From the IMG/VR virus record IMGVR_UViG_3300045988_047070: 64,000 nucleotides of DNA; one strand, written 5' to 3'. The translations under genes were made by a program, and so were the position numbers. This DNA is from a virus. A model generated the notes under the pieces. The model was not told where the DNA came from. It saw only the letters and a program-made list of their open reading frames with translations, and searched no databases. Each line of letters opens with the position of its first letter. Positions within the stretch are counted from its first letter, which is position 1. Shown one piece after another: positions 4,156 to 13,922 of the stretch.

Positions 4156-4542
4156 CTAAGTAATAGCGGTTATTTGTCCACTATTTAATTCATCTTGCAT
4201 TTGTTCATAAGCAACAAAATCTGAATCTACTTGCTCTTTTAATTGCTTTCTCTTTTGTAGGAAATCTTTATATATGTCTATATAACTTTCATCTAATATC
4301 CCCAATAAGGCAGCATTGTAGTCATTCAATTTCTTTGCTTCAACATCTGTACCCCATAGTTCATTAATACATGTCTCTAATATCTTATTAGCAGTTAATG
4401 TAGGCCATACAATCACTTCATAATAAGAATAACCAATATATTCATCTCTTTGTTCCGTTTGTATATCCCATCTATATAAATAGTAACCATTACTATCTCT
4501 TTCTATTGTACTGGGTATTTTATCACTATATGTTCTATTCAT
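4156..4542 (-). CDS. small fibre-associated protein (putative fibre chaperone/assembly), paralog of 7294-7644
   Basis: 128 aa, directly downstream of the fibre gene 4544-7291. Shares D.IP..IE...RWDI...GY.YYE...EA..N with ORF 7294-7644. Confidence 0.5.
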   Translation of the reverse strand: MNRTYSDKIPSTIERDSNGYYLYRWDIQTEQRDEYIGYSYYEVIVWPTLTANKILETCINELWGTDVEAKKLNDYNAALLGILDESYIDIYKDFLQKRKQLKEQVDSDFVAYEQMQDELNSGQITAIT

Positions 4543-4543
4543 A

Positions 4544-7291
4544 TTATTCTGTAGTTGTAGTTATTTCAGTTGATTTATATTTTGGGAAAAAGCAAAGGCG
4601 AGACCCGATGTTATTAGCCACACCAGACGAATTAGTTGTTCCCACGTCAGTCAAGCCTGCATTCAGCCCATCGTCCGAGCGACCACCAATCACCACAAGT
4701 TGCATACGATTAACTGATACGTTGGTGTAGTAGTTGTCACACCAGTAGGTAGAGGTGCTACCTCCGACTTCCGTGGCTATTATATCACCATCTTCTCCAA
4801 GCAACATCTTCTTGACGTGCCCATTTATACGACAGACATTGCCCTTCTTGTCATAACCAGTGTAAGAGGTATCGCTGAAGTTAGATGGATCGTTGGTAGT
4901 CCATAATATGGACAATCCGTCATCGCCCGTGGTGACCTGTATATTAGCCCCGTCAGTGTGTTTCCATATATGACCAAATGGATTCTCTATACCACGATAC
5001 CTGTTAGTCATCAACGTAGCATGAGTACCGTCTGAAGAGTTCTTCACTACATATGCCTTTTCTCCCGATCCGTTCCCTAACTCATTGGTATATCCACATG
5101 GGATAAGGGGGTTATTATTATTGAAATTAGTCCAATCTGTCATTTGCGTTGGTCCCAGACCTAGGCCACCTTGGGAGAAACCGTTAGCGTCCTTTTGAGC
5201 ATTAAACGATTTTTGACTATTTAATGTAGCATATTCTACTGCAAATAGCCAGAATATAGTCTTGTGTGCTCCATATGTATACATTTCCCAACCACTACCA
5301 CGTTTTCTTGCAGCTTGGCGGAATTGGTCTCGGGTAAGGTTGGTAACAGGGCATCCTAGCAAGGAACGGTAGGTATCATCCCATTCAGCGGTGTTGTCAC
5401 CACCTCTAAAATTAATTGAATTAGGATCACTTAATTTACTAGCTCCAGCCGCCGAACATAATAAATTATCGGTTCTATACATTCTGGCTTCATATGTTGA
5501 GATATAGAACTTATCTACATGTTTATACCCAGGTAATGGAATTTCGGACAACATCATCCTAAATTTAGTGCCATTAAAATACAATTTATACCAATGTTCA
5601 GGTATCTCTGTCATAACAGCATAATCCAAATAGCTTCCACCCCATGAAAGCTCATTATCCAAATATTCTTTAACTCCACCATCTCTATCCAACAAACACC
5701 TTCTCATCTTACTCTGGATAGGTAGCTCTCTATGCAATTGAATATTACCTACTCTAACCCCATCAGGACTAGATGATGCAGTATCCCACTCAACACCATA
5801 CGCATATCTTTCTTCTAGATCTGGTATATCTTCCCAAGCTGGAGACCATTCAGTAGAAATATCACCATATTCAAGTTTAATCTTATGGATGGTGGAAATT
5901 GATGTGCCAGTTTTAGGAGAACTAAATACAACCATATGTGTATTATCAGCTACTGCATCTCCGATATTAGTAATCCATTTAAAAGTCTTACTGGCCTTCC
6001 CATTTACAAAGTCAGTCTTACTGAACTGAGCCATAGAACCTACTGCACCAGTAGAGTTATATATAGTGAACATTTCCTTATCATCACCCAACTCTCCAAA
6101 AATAGTCAATGTTACTTGTGTTCCTTTAGATATCTGTTCAGTTAGCCAGTAATTAGCCATCTCATACTCGGCATTACTCACTTTCTTCCCCGATCCCAAT
6201 AACAGGTTTCTGCCATATACTGGAAGCTTACGATACTTGCCGTCATCCATTAAAGCTTTTGATCCGTCACCTGTAGTATGTATTACTACTTCCTTAACAT
6301 TAGGATCAGTAGAATTATCTGTAACACTTGCCTGTATAGAAATTCCATCAGTTACCGGAATTAAATAATCATTATTGACCTGAGTTTCCACATCTAAATT
6401 CTGACGTATCCACATTTGTATAGAACAATGATTAACCCCCATAGTTTGTTGCGCATAAAACCAAAAAGAATTATCACCATTGGTGTTATATCCGCCAAAA
6501 AGACTTGATATATACGCAGGATTATCTCTAATTGGGAGTGTATTAACAAAACCGTTTGGAAGCTTCTCTAGTAATGTATTATAGTCTTCTTGAGATATAG
6601 ATGGAGTATCGCCGTTTGCCACTTTCATGAAGATGTCAAATACCGTATAATCCGCTAAATCAGCTTTAGTAGCTAATTGATCATCTACATATTTTTTGTT
6701 AACATCTACGGTAGGTATGGTGGGTCTATTAGTAAGATCGTTGTAACTACCAGATGTAGCTACAGTAGATAATGTAGGTTTATTCAATATCAATGCATCT
6801 CCTTCTGTAGCATTCCAATCAGCATTAACATTTACTTCGGCACCAGCAGCAATGCCATTCAACTTTGTCTTATCTGAAGGTAACATCAAACCAGCTAAAG
6901 CTGTAGTAGATGCAGGAAGATTCAATTCTATATTTTCTACTACATTGGTTACTAAGTTCCTTTTATCCAGAGTAATAGAGATACCTGTTGCTGTAATATT
7001 CTTAGCAGCAGCTTCAATTACTTCATTGATGTTTGTAACTTTAGTTTTATCTGCAGTAACATAGTCATTAGTACTTAAGCTCTTACCTTCTACTTTATCA
7101 ACTTTAGTATCAATAGCATTATATACCTCAGTAAAGTCAACTTCTGGTATATTTACTACAGACCATACACCATTTTGTCTAGCATACTGTGAACCATCTT
7201 TAGGTGCTTCTTCTACTAGTTCCCGACCATGATCACTACTTAAGTATGGTATTTTAACCCATTCCCCATTATATTTTACTTTAATTACCAT
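4544..7291 (-). CDS. tail fibre / receptor-binding protein 3 with non-diversified lectin-like C-terminal domain
   Basis: 915 aa. The N-terminus has fibre motifs (AGLMLPSDKTKLNGI, GSYNDLTNRP). The C-terminal about 190 aa aligns with the DGR-targeted domain of fibre 2: GGSTSTYWCDNYY...IGSRLCF versus GGSETTYYSDYSW...LGARLAF. Confidence 0.7.
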   Translation of the reverse strand: MVIKVKYNGEWVKIPYLSSDHGRELVEEAPKDGSQYARQNGVWSVVNIPEVDFTEVYNAIDTKVDKVEGKSLSTNDYVTADKTKVTNINEVIEAAAKNITATGISITLDKRNLVTNVVENIELNLPASTTALAGLMLPSDKTKLNGIAAGAEVNVNADWNATEGDALILNKPTLSTVATSGSYNDLTNRPTIPTVDVNKKYVDDQLATKADLADYTVFDIFMKVANGDTPSISQEDYNTLLEKLPNGFVNTLPIRDNPAYISSLFGGYNTNGDNSFWFYAQQTMGVNHCSIQMWIRQNLDVETQVNNDYLIPVTDGISIQASVTDNSTDPNVKEVVIHTTGDGSKALMDDGKYRKLPVYGRNLLLGSGKKVSNAEYEMANYWLTEQISKGTQVTLTIFGELGDDKEMFTIYNSTGAVGSMAQFSKTDFVNGKASKTFKWITNIGDAVADNTHMVVFSSPKTGTSISTIHKIKLEYGDISTEWSPAWEDIPDLEERYAYGVEWDTASSSPDGVRVGNIQLHRELPIQSKMRRCLLDRDGGVKEYLDNELSWGGSYLDYAVMTEIPEHWYKLYFNGTKFRMMLSEIPLPGYKHVDKFYISTYEARMYRTDNLLCSAAGASKLSDPNSINFRGGDNTAEWDDTYRSLLGCPVTNLTRDQFRQAARKRGSGWEMYTYGAHKTIFWLFAVEYATLNSQKSFNAQKDANGFSQGGLGLGPTQMTDWTNFNNNNPLIPCGYTNELGNGSGEKAYVVKNSSDGTHATLMTNRYRGIENPFGHIWKHTDGANIQVTTGDDGLSILWTTNDPSNFSDTSYTGYDKKGNVCRINGHVKKMLLGEDGDIIATEVGGSTSTYWCDNYYTNVSVNRMQLVVIGGRSDDGLNAGLTDVGTTNSSGVANNIGSRLCFFPKYKSTEITTTTE

Positions 7292-7293
7292 AA

Positions 7294-7644
7294 TTAAATA
7301 TTAAATATTTGTTTGCCAATTGTTTTAGCTTCTGTTCTAAGTGTTTGAAAAGATTGCCATTCATCATATCTGGTAATAGGTTGACTGCCACTAAGCAATT
7401 GTTCAACCATATTAGATTTTAATGCTGCTTCCTCATCTGCACTATATCTAGTTCTGATAACCTTACTTACGAAAGAATCATAAGTTGGTTCTTCATTGAA
7501 TTTTAATTCATAATAAGCATAACCATGTATATCTTCAGAATTAACTTCTTCAATATCCCATCTAACTGCCCATTCATTCATTCCTAGGTATTCTATTACT
7601 TTAGGTATATTATCACCCTGTACTTTCTTTAATTCCATCATCAC
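7294..7644 (-). CDS. small fibre-associated protein, paralog of 4156-4542
   Basis: 116 aa. EWAVRWDIEEVNSEDIHGYAYYEL matches YYLYRWDIQTEQRDEYIGYSYYEV in the paralog. Overlaps the RT 3' end by 32 nt. Confidence 0.55.
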   Translation of the reverse strand: MMMELKKVQGDNIPKVIEYLGMNEWAVRWDIEEVNSEDIHGYAYYELKFNEEPTYDSFVSKVIRTRYSADEEAALKSNMVEQLLSGSQPITRYDEWQSFQTLRTEAKTIGKQIFNI

Positions 7645-8653
7645 TTAATAATTTTTGTCTATAATCTTTAAAATTATAAGATCTCGTAAAGCGATACCAT
7701 AAATTATGACAGTTTCCATATTTACACCATCCCCAATAAGCTGCTAGTGATGCTAGCCTCTTATTCTTACTTTTATAACTTAATTTATGAATAAACTTCT
7801 TTTTGATATCTTTCCTGAGTAAAGTATGATCATGGCAAAATACATAACCAATAAAATCTATACCTCTTGCTTCTACAGGAAATATCTGCCAATTACGTTT
7901 TATTTTTAATTTCAAGTTATCAGCTAGATATTTTTCAATCTCTTGTAAGCAATATCTTAAGTAATCTTTATCTGGGTGTAATATAACAATATCATCACAA
8001 TACCTGTAATAATATTTTATTTTTAATACTTGTTTAATCCACCTATCGAACCAAGTCAAATTCAAATTTGCTGCAAATTGAGATATGTAATTTCCAATCG
8101 GTAAACCTTTTGGTGTAGAATAAACTACATGATGTAATAATCTTAATAGTTTCTTGTCCTTAAATATCTTTTCAAATTGTGAGTATAACACATCTTGATC
8201 TATAGAAGGAAAGAACTTTTTAATATCTAATTTTAAACAATATTTTGTGCCTTCTTTATCAGCTTTTAAATCTCTTTTCAATCTCTTTACTCCATAATGA
8301 ATACCTCTTCCTTTTAAACAGTTGAAGGTATCTGCAGTAAATCTATTAACAAGGTAAGGTTCTATAACATTCATTATAGCATGATGGACTATTCTGTCTG
8401 GATAATACGGTAGCCTGTATATTTCTCTTTCTTTGTTACCACGATCGGCGATGATTGTATATACGCAGTATTCCGAAGTACGATAAGTATCTTCTATTAA
8501 TGCCTTTTGTAACCGGACCAGATTTTCATATGGGTTCCTGTCAAATTTCTTAACGCCGTATCTTTTAGTTTTACCTAGCCTAGCTTTCTTTTCAGCCCGG
8601 ACCAGATTTTCATATGATATTATCCTGTTAAATAAATTGCCTATTCTTTTCAT
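7613..8653 (-). CDS. DGR-type reverse transcriptase
   Basis: 346 aa. RT motifs include LPIGNYISQFAANLNL (the DGR hallmark IGxxxSQ) and YCDDIVIL (YxDD). It lies 143 nt downstream of a TR that matches a VR with adenine-only mismatches. Confidence 0.9.
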   Translation of the reverse strand: MKRIGNLFNRIISYENLVRAEKKARLGKTKRYGVKKFDRNPYENLVRLQKALIEDTYRTSEYCVYTIIADRGNKEREIYRLPYYPDRIVHHAIMNVIEPYLVNRFTADTFNCLKGRGIHYGVKRLKRDLKADKEGTKYCLKLDIKKFFPSIDQDVLYSQFEKIFKDKKLLRLLHHVVYSTPKGLPIGNYISQFAANLNLTWFDRWIKQVLKIKYYYRYCDDIVILHPDKDYLRYCLQEIEKYLADNLKLKIKRNWQIFPVEARGIDFIGYVFCHDHTLLRKDIKKKFIHKLSYKSKNKRLASLAAYWGWCKYGNCHNLWYRFTRSYNFKDYRQKLLSDDGIKESTG

Positions 8654-8796
8654 AAGCTATTTTGGTGGTAAGACCCGTTCGCCCAATACTACTAGGGTCT
8701 CTTCAAAGCACCTGTTATCTTTTACCTAGAGGTAAGGCTGATCTAAGTTCAACAAACATTTTTGTAATTATCTGAAAGTATCTGTTAGTTCCAAAA

Positions 8797-8896
8797 TTTC
8801 ACTGATATTCGTCTATGAATTCGAGGATGCATTATTAGCATTAGCTATGAAGACTCTGCATTGAGAACCATTATCTGAATTACCTGACTGTTTTTT
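8797..8896 (-). repeat. DGR template repeat (TR)
   Basis: 100 bp aligning without gaps to 9068-9167 (offset 271), with 68 identities. All 32 differences are at + strand T, which is A on the coding minus strand. In the VR frame it reads KKQSGNSDNGSQCRVFIANANNASSNS*, Asn-codon rich with a stop, so it is non-coding. Confidence 0.9.
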
Positions 8897-9002
8897 CAAG
8901 TATGAAATAATGTGACAGCAGTCTTACTATAAAGTCATCTCATAGTAATTCTTTTAGATCCCGCCCTTGTTATTAATATTTAATTATCTATATTACTCAG
9001 GA

Positions 9003-12000
9003 CTATGCCTGCATTTTCTTAAATGTATCTGAATCAACTACAACGATCTTACCGTAAAAGGCTAATCTTGCACCGAGACTCGGCCAAGAAAGCGAGGAAG
9101 CATGAGCAGCACGAGCCACGAAGACCCCGCACAGAGAACCATTAGCCGAAAGACCCGACCGTAGAAAGATTCTATTTCCTGTTGGATTAAACCAACTATA
9201 GTCGGAATAGTAAGTGGTTTCAGATCCACCATGTGCTGTAGGAACTACATCACCATATTTGCCTTGAGCTATGGCTTTAGTCCATCCATTATATGCAGCA
9301 GTTGCAGCTGGATTAGGTTCATATCCTACAACTCTGATATTAGTAGCACCAGCAGCTTCTAGTTCTGCTACATCCTTATCTGGGAATGAACCTCCGTCAT
9401 ATACAACGTATTTACCTTTTAAAATGTTTATTCCTTGTACAAACTCCCACTTACTGTAATAGCAGTCTTCAAGTCCTAAGAAGTTAGTTGAGTAATATCC
9501 TGTATCTTCTACAACTGCAGCTTTACCGTCTTTATTACCAAGAGTTATTGTCCCACCAGTCTTACCGTAGTCATATCTCTTAGTACCTCCTGAACAAGGA
9601 ATAGCACTATTACTTGTACTAATGTTAGTAGTCTTATAGTAAGCACAAAACATTCTTGCTATAGTAGCATGAGATCTATAATCACCAATACCCCATAAAG
9701 ATCCATGTGTTTTAGCTGCTGTAACAAACTCAGCCATTGTTTTTGAAGCTGCACTTGTCTGTGAAGCTGTACTTATCAACATACCTTCTATGTTTATCGA
9801 TCCTTCAAATGAAGCTAATAACATTTCAGGTTCTTCAATGTAATTACTATCTATTTGCTGTTCAGATATATAGGTTCTCCAAATGCCAGGGCTTCTCTCT
9901 ATAGTTTTGTGATAGTATTTTGGAAAATAAACCATTCTATTTTGATGGTTGTTCATAATTGTAATGTTTGTACTATCTGGCCATTTAGAACTATCCTCTT
10001 CATTACAATAACTAATTAATGCAGCATCATCACCACTAGGCATAGCAATACATCTCTTGAACTTACTTCTTAATGATTCAATTACATTTCTATTACCACC
10101 TGTTGCACATGTTGTGGATGAATTGTTTTCATCATTTTCATACCAGTATGCTAGAGTATCTTCTAGATTAGAAGTATCTACTAATGTTTTATAATACCAG
10201 GTTCCATTATAAGAACCGAATAATATGGAGCTTTTATTAATTAAATTTACTTGACCTGAACAATATTTTGGTAATCCTGTTGTGTTATCTTTTCCATCAT
10301 TAGCATAAAGATTCAAAACACACCACCCCGAGACAGCAGGAGTAATCTCTCCTTGTAGCAATACATGGGAAGTTTCATCCGTATAATTGTTTATTGCCCA
10401 TTTACATAATGCAATCAAAAAATCCTCTGTCGGATAGCCAACTGTCTCATAATCTGATCTTAATAAACCCTGACTTATTAAATCAGTTATTTTTGGAAAA
10501 TTAATATATAATGCAAGATTACCATTTTTATATCCAGCATGATAACCATCTAGCAAATCAGCATCTAGTCCACTACCTGCACCATCATTACCAGCATGCC
10601 ATACTTTACTACCATTTACAGTTAAATTCTTTGCTTTTACTTCAAGTGCATTTAAATTAGTGGTATTCATACCACTTATTGTCATATTATGGGTGTCTGC
10701 ACCTGAAACACCATACTGTAACCATAACCCACTGGTAGGACTGTCAACGATTCTCCATGCTGTATTTTTATTTGAACTTGATCCCCATATAAAAGTTGAA
10801 TCTTCTGTAGAACCAGTTGTAGAGTTTAATTTTATATTATATTTATTGCCAGATACATGTAAATTAGCATCCGGAGCAGTTGTACCTATACCAACTTTAC
10901 CATCAGATGTTATCCTCATTCTTTCAGTATGAGAAGTAGCAGTTCTAAATAAAATTATGTTTCCGTCTAAACACGAGAAGTAGCCATTAGAGCAAGCACC
11001 AAAACCCAGATAGAAGATATTTTGATCACTTATTGACAGTGTACTAAGATCTTTCCCATTAGTATCTTTTATATATAAAGATCTATTATTGTTCATGTAA
11101 ACATTATCCACGTCACTTATATTACCTCTAACGTTTGCACTACCATCAAATGCTTGTCCCCATATAGTTCTAGCAGTAGCTAACTTAGTAGCAGTTGCAA
11201 TATTATCAGAAGCAGTTAATGCAGCATCAAGTTTAGTCTTATCAGCAGCAGACATTACACCAGCTTTACTAGTAGTAGCTTTATCAATAGTTATTGCACT
11301 ACTATCTGCTGTACCTGTTGTAGGATCTTTCTTTTCCAGAGTAATAGCAACAGCATTAGCATCAGCAGTAGCACCTGTAGCATTAGACACATAACTACCT
11401 AAGTTAGTTACTTTCTTTTTGTCTTCAGCTGTATAGTCTTTAGTAGATAAACCTTTACCTGCTTCCTTCTTTACAAATAACTCATCGGCTTGTGCTTGAC
11501 TATAACCATCAAATGTAAAGTCATAATTCTCACTAGGATCTAACCACATGATCTCTTCCTCAGTAGGTTCAGTATCTGAGATCTTAATATCCTCTGGTAT
11601 AGTTACATTCTTATCTACAGCGTTCAAAAGTACCCTTTTGGTAATGGTTTCAATCTTATTGACTTGTGCACCTGCTTCAATACCTTGTAACTTTGCAAAG
11701 TCTTCTTTAGACATCAAACCATTAGCAGTTAGTGATGCTAATTCAGCAGTACCTCCTAATGCATCCCAACCTTCACTTGTCCATGCATAGTTAGTATCAT
11801 TTTTACGAACATTCCATACATCACCAATAATATTACCTTCAGTAGGTAAATCTTCAATCGTATCTACAGATCCTTTGAAAATATATACAGAAGTAAATTT
11901 ACTGTCTACTTGGGATTTGTTATAGTAATTGTTAGCAAGGTCATCTGCTACTACCTTTATGTTAGCATCAGTTTGATCCTTAGTATAGTACCTAGTATCA

Positions 12001-13922
12001 TGAGTATGAGTAGTTACTTCACCTATTAATACAGCTTCAATGGCTGCTTTACTAAGTTCAGCATCTTTACCGGGTTCTCCTTGAGGTCCTTGGAATCTAC
12101 CCATGTTAACCCATTCTGTACCATTCCAGAAGTATAAGTCTGTACCAACAATATAAGAATCACTAAGTTGTGGATCTACTATAGTATCTAAATCTTCTGG
12201 ACTATCAAGACTACCTTTTAAGATAATACCTGAGGATGGCCAACCTGTGTTTACATATACATCATTAACTTCATCCCAAAGATACCAATAACCATCATCT
12301 CCTACTTTGGGAGGATTGTCTGCATATTCTTTAGCTCTATTTGCTTGAGTATTAGCATTATTAGCAGCAGTAGTTGCATTTGTAGTAGCCTGTTGTGCAG
12401 CTGTTTTAGCCTCATTTACGGCAGTTATAGCATCAGCTGTATTCTTTTCCCTTGCAGCCTCTTGAGTCTCTCTAATCTCCTCATTTGCCTGTCTAGTGGC
12501 TTCATTTGACACTCTTTCCTGTTCTGCTGTATCACGAGCTGTTTCAGCTGCTATTCTAGCATCTTCGTTATCTACACGTTTAGTTTCAGCTGCAACTCTT
12601 CCCTCTTCAGAACTGATTCTCTTTGTTTCTTCCTCAATTCTTTTCTGTTCGTTTGTATTGCGTTCAACTTCAGCAGATGCTCTTAATGTTTCTGCACTAG
12701 CTCTAGAACTTTCAGCAGATATACGATTAGCTTCATTAGTTTTACGAATATCCTCTTCAGACTTTCTAGAGTTCTCTGCAGCAATACGCTCATTCTCAGC
12801 AGTTACCCTTTTAGACTCTTCTGCTTTTCTACTGTCTTCATTGGAGATACGTGTATTTTCATTGCTTACTCTGGTATTCTCAGCGTTAACCCTACCTTGT
12901 TCTGCAGTAACACGTAATGCTTCTGCTTCCTTAACAGCTTGTTCAGTAGCTTCTACTTGAGCTTTAGCATCTAAGGCTTCTGCTGCTGCATCTAATGCAG
13001 GTTGTTTTAATGATTGAACCCATTCTGCTTCAGTACCTACAAAACCATGTTGTACTGCAACTTCATATGCTGACCAACCTTGAATACCTTGCATACCAGA
13101 TAAGTCAACAATAAACTTCCAACCATTCTGAGTCTTTAAGTAAACTTTAGCGTCATCAGGATCTTCTACATTATTAGTATTAATAAGTACATACTCACCT
13201 AACTTTACATCAGCAGTACCCCAATCAGCTTCCATTGCTTCTATTGAAGGATATTCCTTCTTATAAGTGAAAGCATCACCAATAGCAGCTATGCCGGTAT
13301 TAACATATTGTTTAGTTTCATAGTTATAGATCCACCAATCATTATCTACGATCTTTGGTGGATTACTAGCAATCTCTTCAGCTTTATCAGTAGCAGCTAT
13401 TGCATCATCAACTATACCTTCAATTTCTTCTACAGCTTGGTTAGCTTTATCTGCAGCTTCATTTGCTTTATTAGCTGCATCTAGTGCAGCAATAGCTGCA
13501 TCTTCAGATGCTTTGCTTAAACTATCAATCCAATCTTGTTCACTACCTTCGAAACCTAATTTAACTGCAATATCATAAGCACTAAGACCACGAGCTTCTA
13601 TACCTGTATCTACATATACTTTGTTGATAGGATCATAAGTAAACCAATGATCATTCTCTCCTATATATGGAGCCTCTGCAGTAGCTTTTACTCCAGTATC
13701 TCTATTGTCTACCCACCAGTTGCCATTAGAACCAATAAATGGTGGTACATAGTCATCTTTACTTACATCAAAGAGTACAACCCATTTTTCTATATCACGA
13801 TTGTAAACTTTAATTATTCTACCTTTTGAATCTGCTCCCAAGTCAACCCAGTACCCAACCTGATCTGGATTGGGTACGGTTATACTTGCAAACCATTCAT
13901 AATATACATTATTCTTAATCAT
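9003..13922 (-). CDS. tail fibre / receptor-binding protein 2, DGR target
   Basis: 1639 aa. Repeated fibre motifs are present (GLSAYDIAVKLGFEGSEQDWIDSL, GWSAYEVAVQHGFVGTEAEWVQSL, DWWIYNYETKQYVNTGI). It also has 22 RxxxExx heptads, a short collagen-like GPQGEPGKD and a VR 61 nt before the stop. Confidence 0.85.
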   Translation of the reverse strand: MIKNNVYYEWFASITVPNPDQVGYWVDLGADSKGRIIKVYNRDIEKWVVLFDVSKDDYVPPFIGSNGNWWVDNRDTGVKATAEAPYIGENDHWFTYDPINKVYVDTGIEARGLSAYDIAVKLGFEGSEQDWIDSLSKASEDAAIAALDAANKANEAADKANQAVEEIEGIVDDAIAATDKAEEIASNPPKIVDNDWWIYNYETKQYVNTGIAAIGDAFTYKKEYPSIEAMEADWGTADVKLGEYVLINTNNVEDPDDAKVYLKTQNGWKFIVDLSGMQGIQGWSAYEVAVQHGFVGTEAEWVQSLKQPALDAAAEALDAKAQVEATEQAVKEAEALRVTAEQGRVNAENTRVSNENTRISNEDSRKAEESKRVTAENERIAAENSRKSEEDIRKTNEANRISAESSRASAETLRASAEVERNTNEQKRIEEETKRISSEEGRVAAETKRVDNEDARIAAETARDTAEQERVSNEATRQANEEIRETQEAAREKNTADAITAVNEAKTAAQQATTNATTAANNANTQANRAKEYADNPPKVGDDGYWYLWDEVNDVYVNTGWPSSGIILKGSLDSPEDLDTIVDPQLSDSYIVGTDLYFWNGTEWVNMGRFQGPQGEPGKDAELSKAAIEAVLIGEVTTHTHDTRYYTKDQTDANIKVVADDLANNYYNKSQVDSKFTSVYIFKGSVDTIEDLPTEGNIIGDVWNVRKNDTNYAWTSEGWDALGGTAELASLTANGLMSKEDFAKLQGIEAGAQVNKIETITKRVLLNAVDKNVTIPEDIKISDTEPTEEEIMWLDPSENYDFTFDGYSQAQADELFVKKEAGKGLSTKDYTAEDKKKVTNLGSYVSNATGATADANAVAITLEKKDPTTGTADSSAITIDKATTSKAGVMSAADKTKLDAALTASDNIATATKLATARTIWGQAFDGSANVRGNISDVDNVYMNNNRSLYIKDTNGKDLSTLSISDQNIFYLGFGACSNGYFSCLDGNIILFRTATSHTERMRITSDGKVGIGTTAPDANLHVSGNKYNIKLNSTTGSTEDSTFIWGSSSNKNTAWRIVDSPTSGLWLQYGVSGADTHNMTISGMNTTNLNALEVKAKNLTVNGSKVWHAGNDGAGSGLDADLLDGYHAGYKNGNLALYINFPKITDLISQGLLRSDYETVGYPTEDFLIALCKWAINNYTDETSHVLLQGEITPAVSGWCVLNLYANDGKDNTTGLPKYCSGQVNLINKSSILFGSYNGTWYYKTLVDTSNLEDTLAYWYENDENNSSTTCATGGNRNVIESLRSKFKRCIAMPSGDDAALISYCNEEDSSKWPDSTNITIMNNHQNRMVYFPKYYHKTIERSPGIWRTYISEQQIDSNYIEEPEMLLASFEGSINIEGMLISTASQTSAASKTMAEFVTAAKTHGSLWGIGDYRSHATIARMFCAYYKTTNISTSNSAIPCSGGTKRYDYGKTGGTITLGNKDGKAAVVEDTGYYSTNFLGLEDCYYSKWEFVQGINILKGKYVVYDGGSFPDKDVAELEAAGATNIRVVGYEPNPAATAAYNGWTKAIAQGKYGDVVPTAHGGSETTYYSDYSWFNPTGNRIFLRSGLSANGSLCGVFVARAAHASSLSWPSLGARLAFYGKIVVVDSDTFKKMQA
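9068..9167 (-). repeat. DGR variable repeat (VR)
   Basis: Cognate of the TR. Encodes FLRSGLSANGSLCGVFVARAAHASSLSWPSLGAR within the C-terminal domain. Confidence 0.9.
12453..12914 (-). repeat. 21-nt periodic coding repeat (22 heptads RxxxExx)
   Basis: Residues R337 to R491 place Arg at every 7th position (RVNAENT RVSNENT RISNEDS RKAEESK ...). The periodicity creates the antisense shadow ORF 12496-12960. Confidence 0.85.

Follow-up and report, generated by a model that had tools for sequence, protein, structure and literature searches.

The window, by which we mean the whole stretch of 64,000 nucleotides analysed here, carries what we read, with a probability of about 0.92, as a minimal Avd-less DGR among the tail genes of a crAss-like phage of the Suoliviridae, made up of a target gene with its variable repeat (VR), a template repeat (TR), a structured RNA and a reverse transcriptase (RT). 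A DGR had been proposed at this place by an earlier sequence-only reading, and the adenine-only mismatches between the repeats, the RT motifs, the placement of TR and VR, the predicted fold of the target and the relatives all agree with that interpretation. The parts of the cassette are as follows.

7294..7644, minus strand: orf116, a small acidic ORF of 116 aa (pI 4.7) that overlaps the 3' end of the RT gene
7613..8653, minus strand: DGR reverse transcriptase, 346 aa, identified by RVT_1, phrog_1423 and bRT matches and by its motifs
8651..8748, minus strand: structured RNA in the interval from TR to RT, a relative of Rfam RT-17/RT-18, found with a custom CM
8797..8896, minus strand: non-coding TR; read in the frame of VR, it contains seven AAT codons and is interrupted by a TAG stop
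8897..9002, minus strand: highly conserved non-coding spacer from the target stop codon to TR
9003..13922, minus strand: target gene for a tail (fibre) protein of 1639 aa, identified by its ORF, PHROG matches and structural operon
9006..10055, minus strand: C-terminal 350 aa of the target, a predicted DGR-type C-type-lectin (FGE-like) fold that includes VR (AF2 and Foldseek)
9068..9167, minus strand: VR, target residues 1586-1619, with a hypervariable core at about 9077-9152

Repeats, reverse transcriptase and lectin-fold target

The computed ungapped alignment of TR and VR (offset 271, minus strand) gave 68 identities and 32 mismatches over 100 nt, exactly the gapless alignment, with mismatches solely at TR adenines, that had been drawn up by hand. 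TR contains 39 A, 27 T, 17 C and 17 G. All 32 mismatches fall at adenines (A>G 13, A>C 10, A>T 9), so that 32 of the 39 adenines differ, as had been counted before, and the alignment tool returned no mismatch at a C, G or T position (0/61); the sequence-only reading had named such mismatches as an outcome that would contradict its alignment. The same pair was recovered by an independent repeat search (family D1). No second VR for this TR was found in the 64-kb window, where the next-best site has 29/61 non-A mismatches. The GC content of VR is 57%, compared with 34% for TR and 34% for the whole window. VR translates as FLRSGLSANGSLCGVFVARAAHASSLSWPSLGAR, residues 1586-1619 of 1639, after which 20 residues follow, in agreement with the peptide and the 20 codons before the stop given earlier. 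Read in the VR frame, TR gives KKQSGNSDNGSQCRVFIANANNASSNS*TNISE; the in-frame TAG and its non-coding position bear out the suggestion that it serves only as a template. At the 5' edge, the first five mismatches face a run of six A (A6), with a G/C mismatch at the next base outward. At these five positions, here treated as invariant, the 48 related VRs read TTTCT or TTCCT, and all of them have C at position 98. The five edge mismatches and position 98 probably lie outside the copied tract, and the safe extent of the repeats is about 8800-8890 for TR and about 9071-9161 for VR.

The RT gene starts 143 nt downstream of TR and its ORF is intact. Both signatures used here to define the DGR clade, [LIV]GxxxSQ in motif 4 and YxDD, are present: IGNYISQF begins at residue 186 (GNYISQ 187-192) and YCDD is at 218, which places the two motifs that had been noticed from the sequence alone. 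The protein matches Pfam RVT_1 (1.7e-17) and phrog_1423 (5e-107), and its best solved homologue is the BPP-1 bRT (PDB 8ub7, E 6.5e-44), which covers residues 2-326.

The target gene shares a structural operon with the genes for TerL, portal and MCP, all three of which match PHROGs (crAss-type structural module). Its own PHROG matches are to tail and tail-fibre families, one of them phrog_5302 (residues 1298-1622). It is by these PHROG matches and this operon position that the label 'tail fibre' is supported; searches of the target against the PDB by sequence gave weak fibre-like matches only. As neither Pfam nor NCBIfam found a domain in the target, its fold was taken from structure prediction. 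For the last 350 aa, the best Foldseek match of the AF2 model (pLDDT 84.7, pTM 0.88) is TaqVP (5vf4, E 1.7e-9), a DGR variable protein, followed by FGE-type C-type-lectin folds (PvdO), Mtd (1yu0) and TvpA (2y3c). The model supports the placement of VR on a C-type-lectin fold at the target C-terminus, where a lectin-type tip had been expected, and TaqVP is the closest structure to it. A 915-aa gene also has a VR-like end, for which no cognate TR is present in the window.

The non-coding part of the cassette is strongly conserved, the stretch from VR to TR diverging by 0.68% among 42 relatives compared with 3-4.5% in flanking coding DNA. The predicted fold of the whole 363-nt non-coding region is no better than that of shuffles (z -0.93), and supported structure is confined to its 3' 98 nt. 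This window RNA scores 26.9 bits with RT-17 (gathering 40.4) and 29.0 bits with RT-18 (gathering 41.3), both below threshold. At the same place, 7/14 of the L048-L083 loci scanned pass the RT-17 gathering threshold (L061, L063, L067, L073, L074, L081 and L083). A custom CM finds the element in 67 loci, with 94.4% of cells able to pair and double-sided changes in 161 cells versus 44 in shuffles. This model and the covariation support homology of the window RNA to RT-17/RT-18-type elements, and by position the RNA at 8651-8748 is the equivalent of the BPP-1 'Sp'/RT-10 region.

Following the BPP-1 paradigm, TR and its downstream structured RNA would be transcribed, and the RT would bind this RNA and copy TR to cDNA, faithfully at C, G and U and unfaithfully at A. 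VR, at the 3' end of the gene for the 1639-aa tail fibre, would then be replaced by this cDNA. By this analogy we infer an RNA intermediate, a priming step and an integration step for the window as well. The outcome would be a change of some 12 residues in the face with which the lectin-fold tip binds its ligand, with up to ~1.6e11 variants, while the rest of the target and TR are kept constant. The likely benefit is quick retargeting of host-surface recognition: the cassette would hold a giant tail fibre hypervariable at the tip that binds the receptor, with consequences for host range and persistence and for the tracking of strains.

Variation among relatives

Across related loci, TR is nearly constant and VR is not. 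Of 51 loci, 33 have an identical TR and all others except L017 have at most two differences in it, and the 48 related VR copies comprise 47 unique sequences. Mean divergence from the window is 0.83% for TR and 16.9% for VR; the non-coding cassette diverges by 0.7-1.2% and the neighbouring coding DNA by 3-4.5%. Variation in the related VRs falls at TR-adenine positions 16-91, and non-A changes are sporadic singletons. The sequence-only reading had expected variation to be confined to the 39 A-templated positions; it does lie at adenines, but at only about 24-26 of the 39. One pair of contigs has 16 differences within VR, compared with two over the 2 kb that lie upstream. Several contigs end inside or beside VR, including the GenBank record cr50_1, which starts inside it, in line with within-sample heterogeneity. 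VR thus breaks assemblies, and in strain-level comparisons it should be masked or handled separately.

These observations bear on the possibility that the cassette is a fossil, that is, that it once diversified VR, no longer retrohomes and has left VR as a frozen allele. Decay does occur in the lineage, as TR is deleted in L016 and scrambled or mutagenised in L017, and a fossil would also fit with no Avd, IMH or hairpin having been recognised in the window. However, a constant TR beside a VR that differs in nearly every contig, even where the upstream flank is near-identical, counts against it. Moreover, the RT ORF is intact and keeps its catalytic motifs, the flanking genes are less conserved than TR and the non-coding cassette, and there are zero non-A mismatches, which a frozen VR/TR pair should gather. 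We therefore regard a fossil as improbable, and the relatives suggest that the DGR is currently active in the window genome.

An ordinary duplication whose two copies grew apart through drift or gene conversion, beside an RT of retron, group II intron or defence type, is effectively refuted: Pfam gives the RT only the generic RVT_1 and NCBIfam group II, retron and DRT models reach it below threshold, but every NCBIfam score is far under its cut-off (group II 102 vs 300 bits), the best solved homologue is a DGR RT over the full length, the chance of all 32 mismatches falling among 39 adenines in 100 positions is ~1e-19 (hypergeometric), and about 50 relatives show this directional pattern again.

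Adenines followed by guanine

Fourteen of the 32 mismatches are fixed or near-fixed in relatives. Five of them face the A run at the 5' edge, one is close to the 3' end and the other eight are in the context 5'-AG-3'. At these eight sites G is found in at least 90% of the 48 related VRs (100% at four), and seven of them lie between hypervariable sites, the eighth (position 94) being 3' of the last. The truly variable set is about 24 adenines in 12 codons, or roughly 1.6e11 possible proteins.

The same behaviour extends to other repeats. Over 338 cases from 132 distinct TR/VR pairs, an adenine in AG appears as G in VR in 93.5%, and in the independent TR2 family two CAG sites, one of them synonymous, are G in 49/49 and 48/49 VRs. 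In the window family, four of the eight AG sites are synonymous, and G was counted there in 182/192 instances versus 50/96 at synonymous non-AG sites (P = 4e-17). That AG becomes G also at synonymous sites suggests context-determined misincorporation, and protein-level selection as the sole cause was rejected because these sites, too, are fixed. Slippage, in the sense of re-use of the preceding template base, was likewise discarded, as it does not generalise to these TR/VR pairs: A before C becomes C in only 2%, and A before T shows no T excess. For the BPP-1 bRT, published work describes an influence of the base 3' of the adenine and proposes template slippage (AC contexts) (PMC12875486); a near-100% AG rule was not found in the literature examined.

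We lean, by a small margin of confidence, towards the view that in this RT lineage a TR adenine in 5'-AG-3', especially in CAG, is copied near-deterministically as G and not randomised. The enzyme would put dC opposite an A straight after a G is copied. If this is true, 'AG' in a TR amounts to a cryptic 'GG', AG sites are invariant, and estimates of diversity that count every adenine are inflated, here by ~400-fold. Should the regularity prove mechanistic, it would refine the reading of DGR templates, their theoretical diversity and the design of synthetic templates.

Accessory functions and known systems

Accessory proteins (Avd or HRDC) are common in DGRs, though not universal. About a quarter of DGRs have no accessory gene (PMC7290462). 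No Avd-type family match was found in orf116, orf128 or orf131 (for orf128, against PHROGs only), and orf116 has no match in Pfam, PHROG or NCBIfam. It is a paralogue (E 3e-7) of orf128 (4156-4542), which comes after a second lectin-tipped tail gene. Because it is acidic and related to orf128, we read orf116 as probably the partner ORF of the fibre gene and not a DGR accessory protein. Homology of orf128 to a 117-aa ORF between VR2 and TR2 in L176 was considered and rejected, the translations being dissimilar by eye. Neither a GC-rich IMH of BPP-1 type nor an inverted repeat or hairpin was found 3' of VR, where the DNA folds no better than shuffles (z -0.36), and TR/VR similarity stops about 9 nt past the last variable site. 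The cassette may possibly use a shorter or different IMH-type signal. The earlier description of the DGR as 'complete' thus stands for the minimal parts, target with VR, TR, RNA and RT, but does not extend to an Avd or a recognisable IMH or hairpin.

Few viruses of the human gut are as abundant as the crAss-like phages. By sequence comparison, the window is one of them, a member of the Suoliviridae (Boorivirinae) close to cr10_1 (NC_055875, Canhaevirus) and cr50_1 (NC_055868, Cohcovirus), with 88.9-94% nucleotide identity to them in this region. Both phages carry the same cassette, the TR region of cr10_1 being identical to that of the window at 369/371 positions. Where their VRs depart from that of the window, they do so at adenine positions, with 16 differences in cr10_1. 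In both records the RT gene is labelled 'Reverse transcriptase' and no TR, VR or DGR is annotated. As DGRs have already been reported in Suoliviridae (PMC11054128), and also in epsilon (PMC11054128) and zeta (PMC12386605) crAss-like phages, the window system is of a known type; the DGR itself holds nothing conceptually new, with the AG-to-GG regularity as a possible exception.

The crAssphage LMMB (Intestiviridae, genus I) has the order TG-VR-TR-RT without avd, as in the window (PMC7290462), and likewise a tail-fibre-type target, a C-terminal lectin-fold VR of ~34-35 codons and a position at the distal end of the structural module. It differs in family (the window being Suoliviridae/Boorivirinae) and in the length of its target (486 aa vs 1639 aa), and IMH and IMH* are annotated in LMMB (PMC7290462) whereas none was identified in the window. 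With BPP-1 (mtd-avd-TR-brt) the window shares full-length RT homology with GxxxSQ and YxDD, adenine-specific TR-to-VR differences, a CLec-fold receptor-binding tip and a structured RNA between TR and RT. Unlike BPP-1, it is an AT-rich phage of Bacteroidota-type gut hosts with no Avd and no GC-rich IMH or cruciform; its TR uses AAT in place of AAC codons, its RNA resembles Rfam RT-17/18 and not the RT-10 of BPP-1, and its target fold is nearer to TaqVP than to BPP-1 Mtd.

Further DGRs come from IMG/VR phages whose RTs are 51-56% identical to that of the window (L059-L083, to which this figure applies) and from a related set retrieved with the RT of L065 (L084-L163). Like the window, they have an RT of the same clade, the RNA element, the same class of VR and the AG-to-GG behaviour. 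In contrast to it, they often have two VRs per TR and shorter targets, and their TR/VR similarity continues for about 20 nt beyond the 3' end of the variable tract, in an IMH-like segment.

The DGR cassette, its target and its phage

On the minus strand, TR and VR form an ungapped alignment, offset by 271 nt, with 68 identities and 32 mismatches. The cassette and the genes beside it are:

4156-4542, minus strand: orf128, 128 aa
4544-7291, minus strand: 915-aa tail protein gene
7294-7644, minus strand: orf116, 116 aa, overlapping the RT end
7613-8653, minus strand: RT, 346 aa
8797-8896, minus strand: template repeat (TR)
9003-13922, minus strand: target, 1639-aa tail fibre protein gene
9068-9167, minus strand: variable repeat (VR), within the target gene

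Every one of the 32 mismatches coincides with an adenine in TR (13 A>G, 10 A>C and 9 A>T), and VR matches TR at all 61 non-A positions. A repeat finder recovered the same pair independently, and the probability that 32 mismatched positions would all hit the 39 TR adenines by chance is ∼1e-19. The hand alignment of the sequence-only reading, with mismatches at adenines only, was confirmed. No second site resembling TR was found elsewhere in the 64-kb window, the next-best having 29 non-A mismatches. GC content is 57% in VR versus 34% in both TR and the window. Translation confirmed the VR peptide as first read (residues 1586-1619 of 1639, followed by 20 residues) and a TR that is rich in Asn codons with one stop in the VR frame; the RT motifs were likewise where expected, IGNYISQF at RT residue 186 and YCDD at 218. 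Overall, the earlier description of a DGR was correct and apt.

Along its entire length, the RT is a homologue of the DGR RT of the Bordetella phage (8ub7, E 6.5e-44). Assignment to group II, retron or DRT types was rejected, as matches to those models lay far below their cut-offs. In the 5' region of the RT, a 29-nt direct repeat (8504-8532 and 8588-8616, 86% identical) encodes the peptide YENLVR twice at the N-terminus. A model of the last 350 residues of the target, built from a 45-sequence alignment (pLDDT 84.7, pTM 0.88), supported a C-type-lectin fold: its best structural match was TaqVP, a DGR variable protein (E 1.7e-9), with FGE-type lectin folds, Mtd and TvpA coming next.

The phage in the window is crAss-like and belongs to the Suoliviridae (Boorivirinae); the 7-kb region shares 88.9% identity with cr10_1 (NC_055875) and 94% with cr50_1 (NC_055868), whose GenBank records annotate the RT but not the DGR. 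The structural operon, which encodes TerL, portal, MCP and tail proteins, carries the cassette at its distal end. Both Suoliviridae (PMC11054128) and zeta crAss-like phages (PMC12386605) have been noted before to carry DGRs, and crAssphage LMMB has the same order of target-VR, TR and RT without avd (PMC7290462); the window DGR thus belongs to an already known kind of system. The window also holds one tRNA-like gene (59533-59600, plus strand; ARAGORN 'tRNA-???', anticodon tt) with an abnormal anticodon loop.

VR turnover among relatives

The RT has 574 relatives in IMG/VR. In the close set, 47 of 48 VR copies were unique, whereas TR was the same in 33 of 51 loci, differing at two positions at most in all others except L017.

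Mean divergence from the window
VR: 16.9%
VR-to-TR spacer: 0.68%
TR: 0.83%
TR-to-RT spacer: 1.2%
Neighbouring coding DNA: 3-4.5%

In one contig pair, 2 of 2,000 nt differed upstream of VR versus 16 of 100 within it, and VR distance was uncorrelated with flank distance. The start of NC_055868.1 (cr50_1, a GenBank 'complete genome') and contigs L027, L039, L047 and L056 end inside VR or a few bases away, so that the hypervariable VR appears to break assemblies. Together, the VR turnover, conserved TR and spacers, near-identical flanks with different VRs and contig ends at VR point to a DGR that has been active over the period in which strains diverge, from which we infer that it is probably active in the window's own genome too.

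The whole non-coding cassette (8654-9002) matches cr10_1 (L001, 5510-5880) at 369 of 371 positions, although identity across the surrounding 7 kb is only 88.9% and the two phages are assigned to different genera; the implication is that the cassette is under strong constraint or was recently exchanged. In L016 (IMGVR_UViG_3300045988_059899, ∼2858), a 135-nt deletion corresponding to window ∼8802-8936 removes TR exactly; as RT and VR are retained, this locus is presumably frozen. The TR copy of L017 (IMGVR_UViG_3300045988_037015, 2758-2857) carries 16 A-to-N changes at TR positions 21-69, including all AG-to-GG, between flanks that are canonical on both sides. Such a pattern would reflect partial conversion of this TR, by a VR or by mutagenised cDNA, or else a chimeric assembly.

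Adenines that vary and adenines followed by G

Fixed differences account for 14 of the 32 window mismatches, because VR positions 1-5 (the A-run edge; TTTCT or TTCCT) and 98 (always C) are constant across 48 VRs, and eight AG sites, TR adenines with G as 3' neighbour (positions 8, 12, 21, 40, 42, 51, 83 and 94), are G in 90-100% of them. Seven AG sites are interleaved with hypervariable sites, and the eighth, position 94, comes 3' of all of these. The diversified adenines number ∼24, in 12 codons (seven AAT plus GAT, CAA, ATA, ACG and ATC), allowing ∼1.6e11 proteins versus 6.6e13 were every adenine random.

Among the 30 interior adenines, the fixed sites are all seven AG sites there (P = 5e-7). 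Protein-level selection is ruled out as the cause at synonymous AG sites, since these too are G: the eight AG sites include four synonymous ones, where G filled 182 of 192 cells, versus 50 of 96 at the two synonymous non-AG sites (P = 4e-17). In a wider survey of more distant relatives (132 distinct TR/VR pairs, 93 distinct TRs), G replaced the adenine in 93.5% of 338 AG cases and in 96% of 313 CAG cases; AA, AT and AC contexts gave spread, broadly randomised spectra. In an independent TR2/VR2 family, all 49 unique VRs had G at the first CAG site and 48 of the 49 had it at the second, there by a synonymous GCA>GCG change. Across the window and loci L004-L163 and L175-L243, the regularity holds in three different TR families. 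Throughout these AG data, many sites occupy equivalent places in related, homologous lectin domains, and every sequence comes from a consensus assembly on which selection has already acted. As synonymous AG sites lie beyond protein-level selection, the simplest reading is a context-dependent misincorporation, in which dC would be placed opposite A just after G is copied. For BPP-1 bRT, 3'-neighbour dependence and a slippage model have been published (PMC12875486; bioRxiv 10.1101/2025.08.18.670894); a near-deterministic AG rule was found neither there nor in PMC5758913 or PMC11601372. Of the whole finding, only the AG regularity might be new.

The RNA element, putative partner ORFs and a second lectin-tipped tail gene

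Between TR and RT, Rfam RT-18 and RT-17 gave sub-threshold matches at 8650-8739, and relatives with 51-56% identical RTs exceeded the RT-17 gathering threshold at the equivalent position. A covariance model built from 18 spacers of such relatives detected the element in 67 loci, with 94.4% of cells pairing and 161 double-sided changes versus 44 in shuffles and ≤41 in slid controls. Weinberg et al. assigned RT-10 to the spacer between TR and RT of BPP-1, speculating that further RT motifs serve other DGRs (PMC5737381), an idea with which the window-type element is consistent.

We found neither Avd nor, 3' of VR, a GC-rich IMH or inverted repeat; TR/VR similarity ends ∼9 nt past the last variable site. 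orf116 is more likely a fibre-partner ORF than Avd, because it is acidic, has no family match and is a paralogue (28% identity, E 3e-7) of orf128, also acidic, each lying just downstream of one of two lectin-tipped tail genes. More likely, then, TR and RT were inserted between the fibre gene and orf116. The position of each small ORF next to a lectin-tipped tail gene suggests that orf116 and orf128 are fibre-specific partner or chaperone proteins.

The second lectin-tipped tail gene, downstream of RT, encodes the 915-aa tail protein. The C-terminal domain of this protein and the lectin domain of the target are homologues (25% identity, E 7e-12), and the VR-like end of the 915-aa protein (especially 4585-4701) reads ...ATCGGGTCTCGCCTTTGC. 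The window contains no cognate TR for this end, which does not vary among members of its own family (L164-L174). Other phages, cr50_1 among them, have a genuine VR at the orthologous stretch (49 unique of 54), with a TR 562 nt downstream in 32 loci.
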